NCBI GenBank assembly: GCA_038087875.1
Contig: CM075990.1
Coordinates: 13,704,001-13,764,000 of the forward strand
DNA: 60,000 bases
Direction of reading: 5' to 3'
Origin: Malacoraja senta
Lineage: Eukaryota
Shown here one piece after another: positions 8,950 through 49,409 of this stretch; position 1 is the first letter of the stretch, and each line of letters opens with the position of its first letter. Position numbers and translations under genes: made by a program. The notes beneath the pieces were generated by a model. The model was not told where the DNA came from. It saw only the letters and a program-made list of their open reading frames with translations, and made no database searches.

Positions 8950-11390
8950 TAAGAAAGTATGTTCATGGAGCACTGAGGTCTTAAAATCACATATGTGTTG
9001 AACCTGAGGGGTGCAGAATATTTAGGACTAGAATTAAGAATAACAGGAATCGATTTGAAGCCTGTAATCTGATTGAAGGGATTTAGTTAAACTGCATCAG
9101 TGAAATTAGCAATGCCTAAAAACATCATTAGCATCCCCATATGAGATTATTGCCTTTCAAAGTGGGTGATACTAATTTAGTTTGTGTTGCCTCACATTGA
9201 CTGCAGAGAAGAGTTAATAACTAATTCATGGTGATAATTACATTGAGTGACAATTGATTATAAAACCATGGAAAATGTATAAGGAAAGCAGAGTTTAAAT
9301 ACTGGGAATTTCTATCTGGGGAAGTACTGCCCTCATTTTGTCAGTGAAGCTTTATGAAGTAAGAATATTGTTTTACTGTTAACCCAAATCTAACAGTTGT
9401 CCGCCACATCTCATTCTTCTGAATTCTGAAGAATTAAGAGCCAGTCATCTTAATCTTGATTGATCTCAGCCTGACTGTGGATGGCATTGCTAAAGAACGA
9501 TACAGCTCAAAATGGCCAAACAAAATTGTCTTTATGCTTCAGCGTTATAGGTTTCAGTTTAGTTTATTGTCACGTGTACCGAGGTACAGTGAAAAGTTTT
9601 TGTTGCGTGCTATCAATATATCAACTATGTTGTTCGTCATCCACTTGGTGTGAAGCACTCCCTATGGGAAGTCCATTGAACTATGGGGAACAGTTGTCTT
9701 CCCAGGGCCTGAACAATGGTCAATTGTTCATCGTTATCCAAGCCTTCATGATCCATATCTCCACCCTTCAACATTGTTGCCTCATTCATGATGACGTTTG
9801 AAAAACTGATTCATAAATAGTTCCAAATAATATCATGTGACAGAGACCTGCATATAATGCAAGTCTGATCTACATATTGTGTGGGTCTAAGGTTGTGACC
9901 TTTGTCATAGATCTAGCTTTACAATTAAGAATGGCTTGCTATAGAAATGTGCAATTTGTACACTGTTCAGATGCATGTAATCAACTTGTATTTGTATTTT
10001 GTCAGCTACATCTTTATAAAACATCCCAAAACAACTTTCCATGAGCTCATGATTGATTATTCTTGTAATTCGGGAGGATTATTAGTAAAATTGGTTGAAA
10101 CATAAACATTGACATAGTTGCCCAGCGTTTAGATAATGCCAAAAGGGATATTGCCTCCATCTATGAGGATGGATAGGATTTAGGTAAATAGTGACACCTA
10201 CAGCAATGTAGCACTCCGTCAGTACTGCCTTGCTGACATACTTCATGTCTCAGGAATGGGGTTTCAATCCACAACCTTGAATCGTTGGAGAAGACCAAAG
10301 CTGCTCCATATGAGACAATGATTGTAGGTAGATCTCCATCCTTCAGACTTGATATGAATTTTGTAATGGCTCGTGTTAGCATCGTGTTCTTCAGAGGTCT
10401 CCACTGGCCAGTTTCACTGGAGCAAAAAACCACTCACGGCAACACATAATCAAATTATATTTTGACCTTGTCATTTGATCTTTCAACCTATTGGTTATTT
10501 CCAACGCCTGGACATTTTGAAGTTATTTATAAGCAGTGGTTGAGAGTTTTATTTAAAGATGAAAGTTTCCTTTTAGATTGTGTAGCTTGAGATATTCTGA
10601 GTATGCAGAATTATGAGCTTCAATTTATTTTTAAACCATGTTATGCCAGTTTATTTTTGATTCTTTGATTTTAGACTCTATTTTAAACTCTCTTTTACCT
10701 CAACTCTTCTCAAGGGTCAATAGCTTTATCAGCATGGGGAGATCATATATTTAAGACTTCTTCAACTATTGCATCTCAGTTGTTACACGTTTCCCTGGTC
10801 ACGTAATTCAGTTCCTACACCCTGTGATCAGGCACATTCCACAAGGGTGAAGTCCACCACTTGAGTATTTGGTGTAGTTCTGGTCAACACATTGCAGATA
10901 AAATGCGTAACTCTGGAGGGAATGCAGGGGAGATTTATGAGGATGTTGTCAGGGGTGGAATCTTGAAGCTATAAGGAACGATCACCTTGAATGAGATTGT
11001 TTCCTTTGGAGTTGAGGAGTTTGAGGGGAGAGTAATTGAGAAGTATGTGACATTATATGGGGCCTAGCTCAAAAGGACCCACGTACTGCAGCACAGGGGT
11101 CAAAAACATGGAGCCAAAAATATTAAGCAATTTGTTTGTTCCGTGTAGAGATGTGGATTTCTTTTTCACTGAGAGGGTGGTAAGGATCCAAAATTCACTG
11201 CCTGAAAGGGTGTTGGAGGGAGACACGGACATCACATTTAGAATCTACCTGATTGTGTACTAGAAGAGCTGGGACAATGGGACCTGGTGCTATAGAGTAG
11301 ATGTAGGCTGGGGCAGTCTGAACAAGGGTCTCGACCCAAAACGTCAGCCATTCCTTCTATCCAAAGGTGCTGCCTGTCCAGCTGAGTTAC

Positions 11391-13117
11391 ATAGATACAT
11401 AGAAAATAGGTACAGGAGTAGGCCATTCGGCCCTTCGAGCCTGCACCGCCATTCAATATGATCATGGCTGATCATCCAACTCGGTATACTGTACCTACCT
11501 TCTCTCCATACCCCCTGATCCCTTTAGCCACAAGGGCCACATCTAACTCCCTCTTAAATATAGCCAATGAACTGGCCTCAACTACCCTCTGTGGCAGAGA
11601 GTTCCAGAGATTCACCACTCTCTGTGTGAAAAAGTTTTTTCTCATCTCGGTCTTAAAGGATTTTCCCCTTATCCTTAAGCTGTGACCCCTTGTCCTGGAC
11701 TTCCCCAACATCGGGAACAATCTTCCTGCATCTAGCCTGTCCAACCCCATAAGAATTTTGTACGTTTCTATAAGATCCCCTCTCAATCTCCTAAATTCTA
11801 GCGAGTATAAGCCAAGTCTATCCAGTCTTTCTTCATATGAAAGTCCTGACATCCCAGGAATCAGTCTGGTGAACCTTCTCTGCACTCCCTCTATGGCTAT
11901 AATGTCCTTCCTCAGATTTGGAGACCAAAACTGTACGCAATACTCCAGGTGTGGTCTCACCAAGACCCTGTACAACTGCAGTAGAACCTCCCTGCTCCTA
12001 TACTCAAATCCTTTTGCTATGAAAGCTAACATACCATTCGCTTTCTTCACTGCCTGCTGCACCTGCATGCCTACTTTCAATGACTGGTGTACCATGACAC
12101 CCAGGTCTCGCTGCATCTCCCCTTTTCCTAATCGGCCACCATTTAGATAATAGTCTGCTTTCCTGTTTTTGCCACCAAAGTGGATAACCTCACATTTATC
12201 CACATTATACTGCATCTGCCAAACATTTGCCCACTCACCCAGCCTATCCAAGTCACCTTGCAGTCTCCTAGTATCCTCCTCACAGCTAACACTGCCCCCC
12301 AGCTTAGTGTCATCCGCAAACTTGGAGATGTTGCCTTCAATTCCCTCATCCAGATCATTAATATAAATTGTAAATAGCTGGGGTCCCAGCACTGAGCCTT
12401 GCGGTACCCCACTAGTCACTGCCTGCCATTGTGAAAAGGACCCGTTTACTCCTACTCTTTGCTTCCTGTTTGCCAGCCAGTTCTTTATCCACATCAATAC
12501 TGAACCCCCAATACCGTGTGCTTTAAGTTTGTATACTAATCTCTTATGTGGGACCTTGTCGAAAGCCTTCTGAAAGTCCAGATACAACACATCCACTGGT
12601 TCTCCCCTATCCACTCTACTAGTTACATCCTCGAAAAATTCTATAAGATTCGTCAGACATGATTTACCTTTCGTAAATCCATGCTGACTTTGTCCAATGA
12701 TTTCACCACTTTCCAAATGTGCTGCTATCCCATCTTTAATAACTGACTCTAGCAGTTTCCCCACTACCGATGTTAGACTAACTGGTCTGTAATTCCCCGT
12801 TTTCTCTTTCCCTCCCTTCTTAAAAAGTAGGGTTACGTTTGCTACCCTCCAATCCTCAGGAACTACTCCAGAATCTAAAGAGTTTTGAAAAATTATCACT
12901 AGTGCATCCACTATTTCTGGAGCTACTTCCTTAAGTACTCTGGGATGCAGCCTATCAGGCCCTGGTGATTTATCGGCCTTTAATCCATTCAATTTACCCA
13001 ACACCACTTCCCGACTAACCTGGATTTCACTCAGTTCCTCCATCTCCTTTCACCCGCGGTCCCCTGCTATTTCCGGCAGATTATTTATGTCTTCCTTAGT
13101 GAAGACGGAACCAAAGT
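11391..13117 (-). mobile_element. CR1 (HER1-type) LINE, 5'-truncated, young
   Basis: 523-aa open RT ORF (KSPGPD, NYRPVSLTS, LDFQKAFDKV, GVPQGSVLGP, KFADDTKL, RPHLEYCVQFW); (TATG/TATCTATG) tail; splits a Penelope-derived repeat with AGTTAC duplicated at 11385-90 and 13118-23. Confidence 0.95.
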
Positions 13118-13937
13118 AGTTACGCCAGCATTTTGTGTCTATCTTCAGCTCTTTTGTAACCTGCAAAGACCCAATGGGCTGAAAGGTCTTCTTTGATGCT
13201 GACAGTGTTTTATAATTTTATTTTCAATGGTACCTCCTATTAGATTTCTGTGCACTTTATCAGGCGCTGAAAGGACAAATATCATATTGATATCGACTGT
13301 TGGCCAACAAAATGTACGACTGCGTTAACGCACATTATTGACCCCCAGCACCATTAGTGCTTGATGTCATTGGGAATCCATACAACATTAGTTAGAAATA
13401 ACTTACATTTTTGCAGGCGGTTTCACATTCCCAGCATGTGTGAGAGCAGATTTTGACCAATGAGTTACCTTGCAACTATTGACAAAGAGAAAAAAATACA
13501 CATATCATTCAGGTTTTTTAATAAAATACCTGCCAGGTGCAGTCACTAGAGTAATATAGGTACAGAAAGATTCAAAAGAATTTCACTGTATCTTGGTACA
13601 TATTAGAATAAAGTACCGTTGATTAATTTAACAGATCAAATCAGGAAAATGATTAGTCTGTTTCAATTATGTCGTCAGAGGGATGGACTAAACTTCATGG
13701 GCCGAATGGCCTAATTCTGCTCCTAGAACTTATGGACATTCACCGGGACCCCAATGGTCTCTGTTCTCCTTCAGAATAGTGTGTTGTTCACTTGAGTTTT
13801 ATATAGTTTTATGTTCATCTGAGAAGGAAGAAGGGACCTTGGTTAACCTTGGTTTAACATTTCTTCTGATAGGTGCTTCTGCTGTCCAACTTGGAGCCAG
13901 TCTAGGTTTGGTGCCCATGTCCTAGAGGTCATGTTAT

Positions 13938-28539: not shown

Positions 28540-30366
28540 CAGATATGTGAAGAGAAAGAGATTAGTTAAAACAAATGTAGGTCCCTTGCAGTCAGAAACA
28601 GGTGAATTGATCATGGGGAACAAGGATATGGCGGACCAATTGAATAACTACTTTGGTTCCGTCTTCACTAAGGAAGACATAAATAATCTGCCGGAAATAG
28701 CAGGGGGTCAAAGGAGATGGAGGAACTGAGTGAAATCCAGGTTAGTCGGGAAGTGGTGTTGGGTAAATTGAATGGATTAAAGGCCGATAAATCACCAGGG
28801 CCAGATAGGCTGCATCCCAGAGTACTTAAGGAAGTAGCTCCAGAAATAGTGGATGCATTAGTGATAATTTTTCAAAACTCTTTAGATTCTGGAGTAGTTC
28901 CTGAGGATTGGAGGGTAGCAAACGTAACCCCACTTTTTAAGAAGGGAGGGAGAGAGAAAACGGGGAATTACAGACCAGTTAGTCTTAACATCGGTAGTGG
29001 GGAAACTGCTAGAGTCAGTTATTAAAGATGGGATAGCAGCACATTTGGAAAGTGGTGAAATCATTGGACAAAGTCAGCATGGATTTACGAAAGGTAAATC
29101 GTGTCTGACGAATCTTATAGAATTTTTCGAGGATGTAACTAGTAGAGTGGATAGGGGAGAACCAGTGGATGTGTTGTATCTGGACTTTCAGAAGGCTTTC
29201 GACAAGGTACCACATAAGAGATTAGGATACAAACTTAAATCACACGGTATTGGGGGTTCAGTATTGATGTGGATAGAGAACTGGCTGGCAAACAGGAAGC
29301 AAAGAGTAGGAGTAAACGGGTCCTTTTCACAATGGCAGGCAGTGACTAGTGGGGTACCGCAAGGCTCAGTGCTGGGACCCCAGCTATTTACAATTTATAT
29401 TAATGATCTGGACGAGGGAATTGAAAGCAACATCCCCAAGTTTGCGGATGACACTAAGCTGGGGGGCAGTGTTAGCTGTGAGGAGGATGCTAGGAGACTG
29501 CAAGGTGACTTGGATAGGCTGGGTGAGTGGGCAAATGTTTGGCAGATGCAGTATAATGTGGATAAATGTGAGGTTATCCACTTTGGTGGCAAAAACGGGA
29601 AGGCAGACTATTATCTAAATGGTGGCCGATTAGGAAATGGGGAGATGCAGCGAGACCTGGGTGTCATGGTACACCAGTCATTGAAAGTAGGCATGCAGGT
29701 GCAGCAGGCAGTGAAGAAAGCGAATGGTATGTTGGCCTTCATAGCAAGAGGATTTGAGTATAGGAGCAGGGAGGTTCTACTGCAGTTGTACAGGGTCTTG
29801 GTGAGACCACACCTGGAGTATTGCGTACAGTTTTGGTCTCCAAATCTGAGGAAGGACATTATAGCCATAGAGGGAGTGCAAAGAAGGTTCACCAGACTGC
29901 TTCCTGGGATGTCAGGACTTTCATATGAAGAAAGACTGGATAGACTTGGCTTATACTCGCTAGAATTTAGGAGATTGAGAGGGGATCTTATAGAAACGTA
30001 CAAAATTCTTATGGGGTTGGACAGGCTAGATGCAGGAAGATTGTTCCGGATGTTGGGGAAGTCCAGGACAAGGGGTCACAGCTTAAGGATAAGGGGGAAA
30101 TCCTTTAAGACCGAGATGAGGAAAAACTTTTTCACACAGAGAGTGGTGAGTCTCTGGAACTCTCTGCCACAGAGGGTAGTTGAGGCCAGTTCATTGGCTA
30201 TATTTAAGAGGGAGTTAGATGTGGCCCTTGTGGCTAAGGGGATCAGAGAAGGCAGGTACGGGATACTGAGTTGGATGATCAGCCATGATCATATTGAATG
30301 GCGGTGCAGGCTCGAAGGGCCGAATGGCCTACTCCTGCACCTATTTTCTAAGTATCTATGTATCTA
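28540..30366 (+). mobile_element. CR1 (HER1-type) LINE, 5'-truncated, near-identical to the 11391-13117 copy
   Basis: Same RT; +1 frameshift near 28985 and a short deletion near 30246; TATCTATGTATCTA tail. Confidence 0.95.
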
Positions 30367-30379
30367 AAGGGCCGGAATC

Positions 30380-30516
30380 TTCTTCTTGCGTATGACGTAC
30401 ACAGCCTAAAGTTGTAGGACAACTTGTTCTATTTGATCTTATTTGATTGTGCACGCCGGGTTGATTGCATTCGTCGAAACAGGGCGGACCACGTGAAGGT
30501 TGCAATCTCCCATCCC
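30380..30516 (-). mobile_element. Short non-autonomous retroelement with minimal HDV-like ribozyme head and (AAG)n tail
   Basis: Imperfect 11-bp TSD GGGCCGGAATC (30369-79) / GGTCCTGAATC (30517-27); minus-strand end ...CATACGCAAGAAGAAG. Confidence 0.75.
30463..30516 (-). ncRNA. Predicted minimal (54 nt) CPEB3/HDV-like ribozyme
   Basis: Minus strand: GGGAUGG GA GAUUGCA ACC UUCACGU GGU CCGCCCU G UUUCGA CGAA UGCAAUC = P1, J1/2, P2, P3, L3, P3', P1', P1.1, mini-P4, J4/2, P2'. Confidence 0.82.
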
Positions 30517-30971
30517 GGTCCTGAATCAATGCTGCATAACTCTGCAGCTATGAGACAGTGTACAACGTGTATATCATGGAGAGGAAATTTTAAATCACCA
30601 AAGTCTCCAATCTTAACTTGGTGACCACTCTTACTGAAGACAGATTTACAAAGAGGACATTAAACACATTTGAGAGCAAGAAATAACAATGTGCCTTTAA
30701 TTGTAGGTAGATGGAGCCTAGAGGGAGTATGTATACACATTGTGGATTGGGTTTACCCTTTCAAAGTGACCTCTGGGTCCAGTAGCTTTGGCTTCTCAAA
30801 TTTCAAAGTGAGGTCTGCCCAATCTTCAGTTTCAATCAGCTTTCAATTTCCAATCGATAGGAATTGGTCCCAGTGGACACGGCTCCAGATGTCAATGCCT
30901 ACCTTGACTGGGACACCCTCTAGTGTTCATCCTAAACATTATTCCATCCTTCTGCATGTGGCTCTGTGTTA

Positions 30972-36140: not shown

Positions 36141-36380
36141 CCGCCCTTGGATTATACTTCCCCAGGAAGAGCTACCAAGCGACGGTGTACATTGGCCAGC
36201 CTGCAGACACGCCACTTCTCCAGGTCTATGCTTTGCCCGATGGGGAGGAGCGCAGGGCTTACTTTGGCTTCTGCAACAATCCCTTGAGCGGATTCCGACA
36301 TCACTGGTTCCGAATCGATGAGCGATCTGGGATCTTTTACCTTAACAAGACACTGGAGGAGAGTGACCTCAATCTGCTGG
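36141..36380 (+). CDS. RET: RET exon 2 (end of signal peptide, cadherin-like domain 1)
   Basis: Polypyrimidine tract + ccatccAG acceptor; reads (A)ALGLYFPRKSYQATVYIGQPADTPLLQVYAL...WFRIDERSGIFYLNKTL, like the RET N-terminus (ALGLYF...YVDQ..GTPLLYVHAL); donor G|GTAAGT; 240 nt, phase 1-1. Confidence 0.95.
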
Positions 36381-36894
36381 GTAAGTGAATCCTTGTATCA
36401 CATGGAACATGATGATAGACGTAATTATGCAATGATGCCATATATGTCACACAAATATTAATATTAATACAAATGTTCCTACTCCATATATGGCGTCATC
36501 ACCTAATAAATGAATCTGGTTCTTGTGTGGTACAAGAAGGCTTTTTGGAAAAATGTTTATATTATTTCAGGTTACAGTAAAACACCGGTAACCTGACATC
36601 CAATTGTTTGAAATCCTCATGGCCGGGCATCTGGCTCACTCATTAATTTGGAATATGTGCCATTGATCCAGAGTGCAGGTGGGCTGTGTGGCCAGAGCTA
36701 GGATCCTGTCCAGTGTCTCGAGTGTGCAGCTGCAACCAGAGCTCGCATCCAGAACGCTGTGGGTCAGGAACATGGCTAGGTCTGCTGTTAGAGCTGGGGT
36801 CCAAACTGCTGATCTATCCCTCGCTCGTTTTAAACACACTGCGGTTTATTATATCACTGAGTGACATCTAAAAGGAAGTGAAATAGAAGTGATT

Positions 36895-40157: not shown

Positions 40158-40551
40158 GATTGAGGAGATTGAGAGGGGATCTTATAGAAATGTACAAAAT
40201 TCTTATGGGGTTGGACAGGCTAGATGCAGGAAGATTGTTCCCGATGTTGGGGAAGTCCAGGACAAGGGGTCACAGCTTAAGGATAAGGGGGAAATCCTTT
40301 AAGACCGAGATGAGGAAAAACGTTTTCACACAGAGAGTGGTGAATCTCTGGAACTCTCTGCCAGTTCATTGGCTATATTTAAGAGGGAGTTAGATGTGGC
40401 CCTTGTGGCTAAAGGGATCAGAGGGTATGGAGAGAAGGCAGGTACGGGATACTGAGTTGGATGATCAGCCATGATCATATTGAATGGCGGTGCAGGCTCG
40501 AAGGGCCGAATGGCCTACTCCTGCACCTATTTTCTATGTATCTATGTATCT
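40158..40551 (+). mobile_element. CR1 LINE 3' fragment, same subfamily
   Basis: RRLRGDLIE..GLDRLDAGRLFPMLGKSRTRGHSL; same 3' UTR and tail. Confidence 0.9.
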
Positions 40552-40591: not shown

Positions 40592-40756
40592 CTTCCTCGT
40601 GTCCGGCCATCTTCTATATCACGTCATTCCGGTCGGTCAGTGACGGTTGATGGTCGGTGGTTGCAGAATTGGCTACTTCAGTCAGTCACTGTGGTACAGT
40701 TTCTGTCGTCAGCATTGCCCGGGATGCGCCACGTGGAGGCTTCTGCTTGCATCCTT
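40592..40756 (-). mobile_element. Short non-autonomous retroelement with HDV-like ribozyme head and purine (GAA-like) tail
   Basis: Perfect 10-bp TSD CCCTAATATT (40582-40591, 40757-40766); minus-strand 3' end ...GGCCGGACACGAGGAAG; no coding capacity. Confidence 0.8.
40663..40755 (-). ncRNA. Predicted HDV-like ribozyme (genomic-HDV-type junctions)
   Basis: Minus strand: P1 AGGAUGC, AA, P2 GCAGAA, P3 GCC, L3 UCCACGU, GGC, P1' GCAUCCC, GG, GCAA, P4 UGCU...AGUA, G-C-C-A-A, P2' UUCUGC. Confidence 0.82.
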
Positions 40757-45934: not shown

Positions 45935-46146
45935 TCTCACGATTCTGTATCTTCTGCCGGATGGGAGCAGGGAAAGGAAGGAATAACCAGGGTGGGACAA
46001 GTCTTTGATTGTGTTGGCTGCTTTTCCAAGACAGTGCAAATGGTAGATAGAGCACTGGCCTACATCCATAACTCTGAGGAATATCTTGCAGTCTTGGGCT
46101 GAGCTGTTCCCACACCAAGCTGCGATGCAATCTGACAGTAAGTTCT
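45935..46146 (-). mobile_element. Rex1/Babar-type LINE fragment split by the HERO-like insertion (continues 49691-49830)
   Basis: CIAAWCGNSSAQD...KDLSHPGYSFLSLLPSGRRYR in ORF 45803-46228. Confidence 0.75.
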
Positions 46147-49100
46147 TGAAGATCCACCAAGGGAAGAAAAAGTGCTTGAGAGAGCAGAAACATGGGCCTC
46201 GCATTGACCAGTACTTCTTACGAAGCAACCAGTCAAATCAGTCGAGTGAAGCACAGCGACGGGACACAAACCAAAGTTCGCAGAGCATCAGCACCCATGT
46301 CACTGAAGAGGGTGATACAAGCACAGAAATGCCGGTGGAGGAGCCCACGCAACAACTACAAAGACCTCCATTGGAGGGAAAGATCAAAGGGCACAAACCT
46401 GGAGTGAAATGGCCCAAGGCTGTTGAAAAGAAAGAGTGGGAGACGGTCAACAGTGACCTTATACATATCTTGGAGCAACAAACGGGCACAGCAGTGGAAA
46501 AGCTTGAAAGGATGGGCAACACAATCTACAGCTATGGAGAAGAACGGTTTGGGGTGAGTAAAGGGAGAGGTGGAAAGAAATTACCAACACCAATCAAGTC
46601 CAGGAGGCAGCAGGAGATCGAGAGGCTAATCAGAGAGAGGAGACAGTTGAAAAAGCAATGGAAAAAAGCAACTGACGCAGAGAGAGAAGGTCTCATGCTA
46701 CTCCAAGAGGACATCAAGAACCGATTGGCAACCTTGCGAAAAGCAGAGAACTTGAGGAAACTTCGCAAGAAGAAAGAACACACAAGAACACGGTTCTATA
46801 AAGACCCTTTCAAGTTCATCAAAGACCTCTTCGCAACTTTGAAAACATCAAAACAGGAATTGGAGGAACACCTGGAAAAGGCCCACAAAGACACGAAAAG
46901 GCATGAGCAGTTGGTCATCCCACATGACATCCCGCCTATTCAACCACCTGAATTCAACATGGACACCAGCCCTCCGAGATGGAAAGAGGTGGAGAACACG
47001 GTCCGGCGAGCAAGAGCAGCTTCAGCTCCGGGGCCAAACGGAGTACCATACAAGCTCTATAAGAACGCACCAGATGTGTTACGCTTTCTATGGAAGCTCA
47101 TGAGGGTGGTGTGGAAGAAGCAAACAATACCTAAGGCTTGGCGAAGGGCCGGCGGCGTGCTAATACCTAAAGAAAAGGATTCGTCAGACATCAGCCAATT
47201 CCGGCCAATATGTCTCCTCAACGTCGAGGGAAAAATCTTTTTTAGCATTGTATCACAAAGGCTGTCCACCTATCTGGTAACAAACAAGTACATTGATACA
47301 TCTGTACAGAAAGCAGGAATTCCAGGATTTTCGGGTTGCTTGGAGCATACAAGCATGATCTGGCACCAGATCCAAGCAGCTAAGAAGGACAAGAGAGACC
47401 TACATGTGATCTTCCTCGATCTGGCCAATGCATTTGGTTCAGTTCCCCATGAACTCCTTTGGGAATCTTTTGCCTTTTTCCATGTACCAGAGCTCATCAC
47501 CACACTGGTCAAGAAATATTACCAAGACCTGCAGCTGTGCTTCACAACAGCTGACTTCAGTACAACATGGCAGCGCTTGGAAGTAGGCATCATGGCAGGC
47601 TGCACAGTCTCACCCTTGGCCTTTACAATGGCCATGGAAGTCATCATCAGGGCCTCAAAATGGGTGGTGGGCGGTGAACGAACCAGGGCTGGGCTCCGTC
47701 TGCCACCCATCAGGGCATACATGGACGACATGACAACACTAACCACTACTGCAGCATGCACCAAGCGGCTACTTGGAAAGCTGCAGGAGAACATCAAGTG
47801 GGCCCGAATGAAAATCAAACCAAGTAAATCTCGAAGCATCTCCATAGTCAAGGGGGTGCTTAGAGACACAAGGTTCTGTATTGGTGACGACCCAATACCA
47901 ACAGTGTCTGAGCAGCCAGTTAAAAGCCTGGGAAGATGGTATAACGCAAGTCTCAAGGACAAAGAGCAGGTGCAACAACTAAGGCAAGAAATTGTCAATG
48001 GACTGGAGAACATCAATCAGACCCTACTGCCTGGGAAACTGAAGCTCTGGTGCCTACAGTTTGGACTCCTTCCTCAGACAATGTGGCCACTGACCGTTTA
48101 TGAAGCCCCAATAACAACTGTGGAGAAGATGGAGCGAACCATAACTTCATACGTGAAGAAATGGCTCGGTGTCCCACGATGTCTAACTAACATCGGCCTC
48201 TATGGCAAAGGGGTCCTGGAACTACCTCTCACTAGTCTAACAGAGGAATATAAGTGTTCTAAAGTAAGACTCCAGATGACACTGAGGGACTCTAGAGACA
48301 AGATCATCAGTGCTGTTGCGCCGCCCCTAGCAACTGGCCGGAAGTGGACACCATCTGATGCAGTACAGCAAGCTTCATCAGCCCTGAGGCACAAAGACAT
48401 AGTGGGGCAAGTCCAGCAGGGAAGAGGAGGCTTTGGCCTTACGACAAGTAAACCAACTTGGCGAAAGGCCACAACATCAGAGCGGAGGACGTTGGTGGTT
48501 GAGGAGGTGCGGCGACAGGAGGAGGCCGCAAGAAGTGCAAAGGCGGTCTCTCTTGCCAAGCAGGGGCAATGGATGCATTGGGAAGGTGTGGAGCGGAGGA
48601 AGGTCAGCTGGAAAGAACTATGGGAAATGGAAGCAAGCAAGATCAGCTTCATCATCAGAGCGACATATGACGTGCTTCCATCACCAAAGAACCTCCATCA
48701 GTGGTACGGCGAGGATCCAACCTGTGCCATCTGCCCAACTCCAGCGACCCTCAAACACATCATGGTAGGCTGCAAGACCAGCCTCACGCAAGGGAGATAC
48801 ACGTGGCGGCATAATTAGGTACTAAAAAGCCTGGCATCAGCCCTTGAGAACAGGCGGTGTGCGACCAACTCCTTGCCTCCGAGAGCAAGCAACCCTCCCC
48901 TAAGGGTAATAACCTTTGTCCGAGAAGGACAGAAAACTTCTAAACTTCCTTCCACCAGATCAGAAGAAGGAAGCCAATGCAGGGCCCGTGACTGGAGGAT
49001 GCTGGCGGACATCGGCCGACAACTAATTTTTCCACCTGAAATTGCTTCCACCACCCTCAGGCCAGACTTGGTGTTCTGGTCCCCTTCACAGAAGACTGCT

Positions 49101-49409
49101 TACATCATAGAGCTCACAGTTCCATGGGAGAACTCTGTTGAGGAGGCCTATGAGCGTAAGAAGCTGCGCTACGCAGAGCTTGCAGCAGAGGCAACGCAGC
49201 GTGGCTGGAACACCAAAGTCTATCCAGTTGAAGTGGGATGCAGAGGATTTGTTGCGTCATCTACCATCAGACTGCTGAAGGAGCTTGGAATCCACGGTCA
49301 GGCTCTGCGGAAGACCATAAGATCACTCTCAGAGGCGGCTGAAAGAAGCAGCCGGTGGATTTGGCTCAAGCGGAAAGACCCATGCTGGGCCCCAAGTATG
49401 TCGGGGTGA
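46147..49409 (+). pseudogene. RT + CCHC + restriction-like endonuclease polyprotein interrupted by one nonsense codon
   Basis: RT motifs APGPNG, FRPICLLN, FLDLANAFGSV, GIMAGC..SP, YMDD; CAICP..LKHIMVGC; WRHN*VL (TAG at 48816-48818); RPDLVFW..IIELTVPWE..AYERKKLRY. The two listed ORFs (46086 and 48873) are in the same frame. Confidence 0.92.

Follow-up and report, generated by a model that had tools for sequence, protein, structure and literature searches.

The window around RET and its two elements with predicted ribozyme heads

The window analysed here, a 60,000-nt stretch of Malacoraja senta contig CM075990.1, carries RET exons on the plus strand over positions 36141-56343, coding for cadherin-like domains 1, 3 and 4 and for the cysteine-rich domain. 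The first exon found (36141..36385, placed by Pfam, with its splice acceptor read) holds the start of cadherin-like domain 1, and Pfam located further exons near 43.9, 51.6, 53.2, 54.3, 55.4 and 56.2 kb. Two short elements lie antisense to the gene: element A, a member of family A (30380..30516, minus strand), which precedes the first exon found by 5.6 kb, and element B, of family B (40592..40755, minus strand), in a RET intron between the exons. The location of element A in intron 1 is unproven, since RET exon 1 was not found in the window. Being antisense, neither element would cut the RET pre-mRNA, and for the same reason the window copy of family A is not a sense intronic ribozyme.

Other repeats share the window. 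Inside a RET intron, 46047-49406 (plus strand) contains a 923-aa open frame with a reverse transcriptase (RT) domain and a 196-aa frame, with motifs that we take to be those of a restriction-like-endonuclease LINE. Another LINE, presumably CR1-like, has copies at 28645-30365, 11385-13122 and 40159-40551, the first two being 97% identical over 1.7 kb, and both ribozyme elements lie at most 40 bp from the tail of such a copy. Targeting to these tails was rejected, because the 81 tail matches in 106 loci were evenly spread over distance: the closest 100-nt bin held 8, including some duplicates, and the others 2-9.

Element A measures 137 bases, its limits being those of the family copies described below. 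As the preliminary description proposed, the minus strand starts exactly at G1 (30516) of an HDV-like fold with a G.U pair at the cleavage site (G1.U36). This predicted 54-nt ribozyme (30463..30516, cleavage predicted 5' of 30516) has a P1 formed by nt 1-7 and 30-36 (30516-30510/30487-30481) with a single A x C mismatch at nt 4/33, a 7-bp P2 formed by nt 10-16 and 48-54 (30507-30501/30469-30463), a P3 of ACC/GGU (30500-30498/30490-30488) and an L3 of UUCACGU (30497-30491). P1.1, to which a single G contributes at G37-U38 (30480-30479), is one C-G pair, as in CPEB3. J4/2 is CGAA and begins with C44 (30473), the predicted catalytic cytosine, at the position of C75 in HDV and C57 in CPEB3. P2, P3, L3, P1.1 and J4/2 were all read as first reported; P4, described there as reduced to about 6 nt, is absent, its place between U38 and C44 being taken by a 5-nt remnant, UUCGA.

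The ribozyme is followed on the minus strand by the remainder of the 5' end of a parent LINE (nt 55-77, 30440..30462), with the 5' arm of a predicted closing stem at 30457-30448, and by a deletion junction (30423..30439) that in part repeats the preceding 8 nt and is otherwise without clear LINE source. The 3' end of the parent (30380..30422) comprises its last codons, the stop codon (30408-30406), a 3' UTR of about 20 nt with the 3' arm of the closing stem (30403-30394) and the (AAG)n tail. The ending CATACGC(AAG)n and an imperfect flanking duplication, both already described, were confirmed in the sequence: the 5' copy (30517..30527) and the 3' copy (30369..30379, its first base shared with the tail), read as 30527-30517 and 30379-30369, agree at 9/11 positions.

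The nested double pseudoknot with P1, P2, P3 and P1.1 is present in the family A head according to descriptor searches and an alignment of 12 heads, as are the purine-pyrimidine pair at the cleavage site (G1.U36) and the J4/2 cytosine (C44). A descriptor that included the L3 letters, composed after the sequences had been seen and partly circular, matched the window at 30516 and 40755 only, with 0 matches in 40 dinucleotide shuffles. A minimal structure-only descriptor without these letters retrieved the window element alone and had 0 matches in 15 resampled windows; a loose structure-only version gave 15 matches in 15 such windows. The fold at 30516-30463 is not a chance occurrence. Rfam gave no match to the window element at E<=1 and none at E<=5 to the family copy L001, and ViennaRNA, which is blind to pseudoknots, returned P2 only for the ribozyme (z -0.8). 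Folding may be weak, since 5 nt fill the P4 position and P1.1 consists of a single G-C pair. The window copy, inserted antisense to RET, has decayed slightly and gives no hint of serving the host.

Family A and its parent LINE

A whole-genome search returned 1,115 first-look candidates, 40 of which were scored and were 96-100% identical to the element. Exact matches to a 26-letter anchor, which leaves nt 1-46 unconstrained, place the family at no fewer than 4,461 copies (reversed control, 0). Thirty copies were examined for target-site duplications; duplications of 8-16 bp were found in 17 of the 25 with a located tail, compared with 1/75 mismatched flanks, and ended at G1 or G1+1 in 14/17. 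The 19 full-length copies from this sample show 91% pairwise identity (91 to 96% for subfamilies); all 17 pairs are intact in seven of them and C44 is kept in all 19, C being found at position 44 in 71/74 family A copies. Frequent subfamily changes sit at J1/2, at the free J4/2 position and at a U.G pair changed to U-A. Variable sites number 5/53 in the ribozyme versus 17/81 in the remainder (p = 0.10), a depletion in the head that is not significant. Copies with the same ends occur in four sequencing runs from three other organisms, and two patterns searched in viral contigs had 0 matches.

The P1 mismatch, attributed at the outset to decay after insertion, is indeed decay, since A4 is rare and scattered in the family: it was counted by eye in 1/100 of the first copies listed, its carriers (9/74 copies) are spread over different subfamily backgrounds, and G stands at nt 4 in 93-98% of reads or contig depth. 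With G4 prevailing, the family P1 pairs along its full length. A4 was also considered as a subfamily marker and rejected, its frequency of 7/30 having arisen from the selection of best matches to the window copy.

The parent was reached through an exclusion pattern with 1,570 matches, largely from indel subfamilies; these pointed to L067, in which the family A head continues into an endonuclease frame. A piece of this locus matched 22 places, and 5 of the 15 stretches fetched carry both element ends about 3 kb apart. These five near-full-length LINE copies are 87-94% identical to element nt 1-77 (L105 over nt 43-77 only) and 87-95% identical to nt 95/100-137. The parent LINE is about 3.05 kb long with a single ORF, and the element retains its nt 1-77 and last ~40 nt. 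Since both ends match one autonomous LINE about 3 kb apart, family A is, judged by sequence, a bipartite internal-deletion derivative of that LINE. A second deletion junction was seen in L063/L064.

In the parent frame, Pfam recognised an AP endonuclease (PF14529) and a reverse transcriptase (PF00078) and no RNase H, and the stop lies 20 nt ahead of the tail. An intact relative of 1,019 aa (P0001) is 72% identical over the RT piece; PF00075 occurs in 0/120 relatives among the matches listed, most of which are about 1000 aa long, and a PDB search yielded L1, R2 and group II intron RTs only. Both parent copies that were translated are broken, and an intact element able to drive family A was not encountered. 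At L104:567-884, the reading frame of the ORF extends open through the parent head, where an ATG inside J4/2-P2 could be a start codon.

The parent is likely of Vingi type, a label drawn from architecture rather than from a tree with named references. It fits the Vingi layout of about 3 kb, with one ORF that encodes an AP endonuclease and an RT but lacks RNase H; RTE has the same layout, so this architecture is not diagnostic alone. In a quick RT tree, P0179, an Anolis protein that we take to be similar to Vingi-1_Acar, belonged to another subgroup than the family A parent. Vingi elements have been described with a single ORF lacking RNase H (PMC13708176), and bipartite derivatives have been reported for RTE, Ingi, Vingi and R2 (PMC5786205).

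The preliminary description had instead seen a ribozyme-SINE, that is, a classical SINE with an independently gained ribozyme head and no relation to the family at 40592. The unalignable stems of families A and B, and the failure of two exclusion patterns to reveal a family B parent, would fit such an origin. It is contradicted by the identity of the head, as well as the region beside the tail, to the ends of the LINE, by a tRNA search without result and the lack of an A box or B box in family A, which has no small-RNA head of the tRNA/5S/7SL type, and by a family B tail resembling those of other Vingi-type LINEs. For family A this explanation is largely refuted, and as a whole we regard it as hardly credible. 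Very probably, this high-copy element arose from a 3-kb LINE, likely of Vingi type, by an internal deletion that left both ends; its head is predicted to self-cleave and to yield an RNA starting exactly at the first base of the element.

Heads and predicted end pairing in Vingi-type families

A protein search revealed further Vingi-type families in the genome and in metagenomes. Among 85 loci tested for heads, many of them redundant, decayed or 5'-truncated, a strict descriptor matched 12, located 184-224 nt upstream of the endonuclease and standing at the element boundary wherever this is visible. When 12 heads were aligned with MAFFT, 90% of cells were paired and two-sided changes occurred at 13/17 pairs, P1.1 being outside the covariation count; 0/500 shuffles attained the covariation score and slid controls paired 38-50%. 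As these rows were picked for fitting the fold, the independent support lies in where they are located and in the low rate of null matches. The predicted catalytic C is invariant in the 12 aligned heads; across families, the three helices persist and the first pair stays either G.U or G-C. The P4 region spans 5 nt in family A, the shortest remnant, versus 15-46 nt in nine other heads. The CPEB3-like letters noted at first in element A (L3, G37-U38, CNAA) are present, but are common to Vingi-type heads. The predicted ribozyme is a trait of the Vingi-type clade.

Other heads were also noted. Family D (L334, L336, L340-L343; six copies of about 170 nt) is a second P4-less family that has a 5-nt P4 remnant, ends in (AAG)n, carries duplications and can pair end to end over 12 bp; the first G of its P1 is apparently missing. 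At L168, about 240 nt before the endonuclease, a head missed by the descriptor has an apparent long hairpin in the L3/P3 region.

Element B, with a long P4 and the tail GACACGAG(GAA)n, scores 21.8 bits on Rfam model RF00622 (mammalian CPEB3, cut-off 35 bits), and its copy L032 scores 30.0 bits. No stems can be aligned between the two families, and two exclusion patterns for a family B parent (11 and 5 matches) returned only short copies or a 3' fragment. Its tail type and ribozyme core are those of another Vingi-type subgroup, from which family B likely derives. Thus, the first claim that the two elements are unrelated was too strong: the families are separate yet likely homologous, because other Vingi-type families start with the same fold and show compensatory changes. 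At L304:1566, a family B 3' fragment adjoins a stretch presumably similar to the start of a retroviral gag.

A head inherited from the LINE could instead act solely as an internal promoter or as a protein-binding, RNA-protecting fold, its sharp 5' end then reflecting transcription start rather than self-cleavage. In L1Tc, one head serves as promoter as well as ribozyme, and some SIDER heads that fold well were inactive (PMC4035085). RNA reads from two related organisms showed no end pile-up at 30516, although their poly(A)/oligo-dT libraries are poorly suited to reveal one; reads run in both orientations and continue past 30516 into the flanks, with 252 and 1,080 loose ends. The conservation across families of the catalytic C, of the G.U or G-C first pair and of the three helices, together with target-site duplications adjoining the predicted cleavage site, speaks against this explanation, which we consider unlikely. 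Self-cleavage, the preferred reading, has a precedent in the NARTc and SIDER heads, which cleave themselves at +1 (PMC4035085).

A further prediction concerns the two ends of the RNA. In family A, nt 60-69 are predicted to pair with nt 114-123 (z -2.7 for the 3' part). Across families, windows of 40 x 55 nt gave a mixed signal, the own 3' end ranking first in 4/11 and stems beginning 3-6 nt past P2 in 9/11. With 20-nt windows, set post hoc after that view, the cognate mean in 7 autonomous families was -11.1 versus -5.1 kcal/mol for non-cognate ends, a pairing equalled by 48/200,000 permutations. The cognate end ranked first in 5/7 families, second in a sixth and fourth of seven in V2; post-ribozyme bases are predicted to pair with pre-tail bases in 6/7, V2 failing. 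L231 and L238 were left out because the end of P2 is uncertain. Four shifted windows had no signal and one a weak one (p 0.04). No description of such a stem was found in the portions of the literature searched.

These predictions can be assembled into a cycle. A host transcript would read through a copy in the sense direction, and the P4-less ribozyme would cut 5' of G1, freeing the element from the upstream host RNA. Nucleotides 60-69 and 114-123 would then pair, so that a closed stem joins the two RNA ends. We infer that the LINE protein, acting in trans, would bind the 3' end of this RNA and insert a copy at a nicked site through target-primed reverse transcription.

Known relatives and the CPEB3 ribozyme

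Ribozyme-headed deletion derivatives of LINEs are already known, and the kind is not new. NARTc, RIME and SIDERs of the trypanosomatid L1Tc/ingi elements are likewise short derivatives with the two ends of a LINE and a 5' HDV-like ribozyme, but have a 77-nt head with P4 and a parent with RNase H (PMC4035085), whereas family A has a vertebrate host, a 54-nt head, no RNase H in its parent and an (AAG)n tail. The non-autonomous derivatives of Vingi-1_EE are also close, Vingi being one of four clades with reported bipartite elements (PMC5786205). R2 SIDEs are also internal-deletion derivatives with an HDV-like head (PMC3414825; PMC4035085); they are site-specific in rDNA and depend on a restriction-like endonuclease, in contrast to the dispersed family A. 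Minimal HDV-like/theta ribozymes equally lack the P4 domain; about 99% are found in phages, their origin and function are described as open, and the consulted parts of that report mention no eukaryotic theta ribozyme (PMC10879173). Family A differs from them in its thousands of vertebrate retroposon copies and in not being tRNA-linked. What family A adds is a vertebrate bipartite retroposon of Vingi type whose predicted HDV-like head lacks P4.

The mammalian CPEB3 ribozyme and family A share the register to nt 38, the U20-U26 loop, the one-pair P1.1 at G37-U38 and the absence of J1.1/4 (10.1101/2022.09.22.508989). They differ in that family A has other stems and no P4, and the window copy is antisense to its own host gene. 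The Rfam HDV/CPEB3 models, proposed initially as a check, gave no score for family A, which had no match on RF00622 and is below 35 bits; sister families pass this cut-off. On the genome, RF00622 gave 51 matches among 59 scored, 39 of them above the cut-off; 14 control genomes yielded no match. The best 30 comprise 10 that head a Vingi-type frame, two fragments from the 5' part of that family and 18 members of four short families. The two best scores, 64.2 and 63.8 bits, belong to copies with duplications, from a family with long open frames. Family V4 (L155, L156, L148, L159, L314-L333) is a young LINE of Vingi type whose open frames span 991-1,002 aa and whose head scores 40.7-64.2 bits, and L182:3117-6290 is a complete metagenomic Vingi-type element with a duplication, a (CAT)n tail and a head at 55.6 bits. 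In L148 and L159, the 5' half of the head is tandemly repeated. CPEB3-like heads also start three old short families of about 100-120 bp: C1 (L325, L327, L329, L335, L338), C2 (L328, L331, L337, L339) and C3 (L318, L322, L326), none of them with a proven tail, duplication or parent.

Two readings of this likeness have to be weighed. HDV-like cores are constrained, and convergence in a small sequence space, which would leave the origin of CPEB3 uninformed, is a serious possibility, if one that we would not favour. Consistent with it, C1, which has the CPEB3-like P4, is known from 5 copies with no proven tail, duplication or parent (two patterns, with 4 and 3 matches, found no further ones), and the likeness carries no transfer direction, the mammalian flanks lying outside the comparison. 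Nevertheless, 55-64 bits do not come from the fold alone, since heads A, V2, V3 and V5 share that fold yet stay below 20 bits or have no score at all. Compared by eye with the Rfam consensus, L182 agrees at 35/37 of the first nucleotides, L325 at 54/67 letters and L338 at 14/14 letters of both P4 arms. Moreover, the RT tree joins the two CPEB3-like families with ORFs as sisters (SH-aLRT 91) and puts the family A parent in a different group (99), although this tree is a quick version with its outgroup on a long branch.

Similarity of sequence makes the sister Vingi-type heads candidates for the donor of the mammalian CPEB3 ribozyme, whatever the direction of transfer may have been. Domestication from mobile elements has been proposed in general terms (PMC7761336), and Vingi traces occur in human DNA (PMC5753468). 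The literature search found no paper joining CPEB3 with Vingi, no donor named in titles and abstract starts, and no Vingi ribozyme in the sources covered; supplements, Repbase or patents may hold such heads under other names. The earlier suggestion that such elements model the seeding of intronic ribozymes is better backed by the sister families than by a window copy antisense to RET. We give roughly even chances to the full proposal that Vingi-type LINEs carry CPEB3-class heads and shed tiny derivatives, that the CPEB3 ribozyme is a domesticated head, and that a family-specific end-closing stem labels the RNA to be copied and accounts for the choice of the two pieces kept.

If the head of family A cleaves as predicted, P4-less HDV-like ribozymes, reported almost entirely from phages (PMC10879173), would gain a eukaryotic home and a plain job. 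The main interest lies in the sister families and the end-pairing stem. In Vingi-based gene insertion, donor RNAs carry both UTRs (PMC13708176), and the end-to-end stem, if true, would be a design rule for such systems. Through the sister Vingi-type families, the origin of the CPEB3 ribozyme becomes testable.
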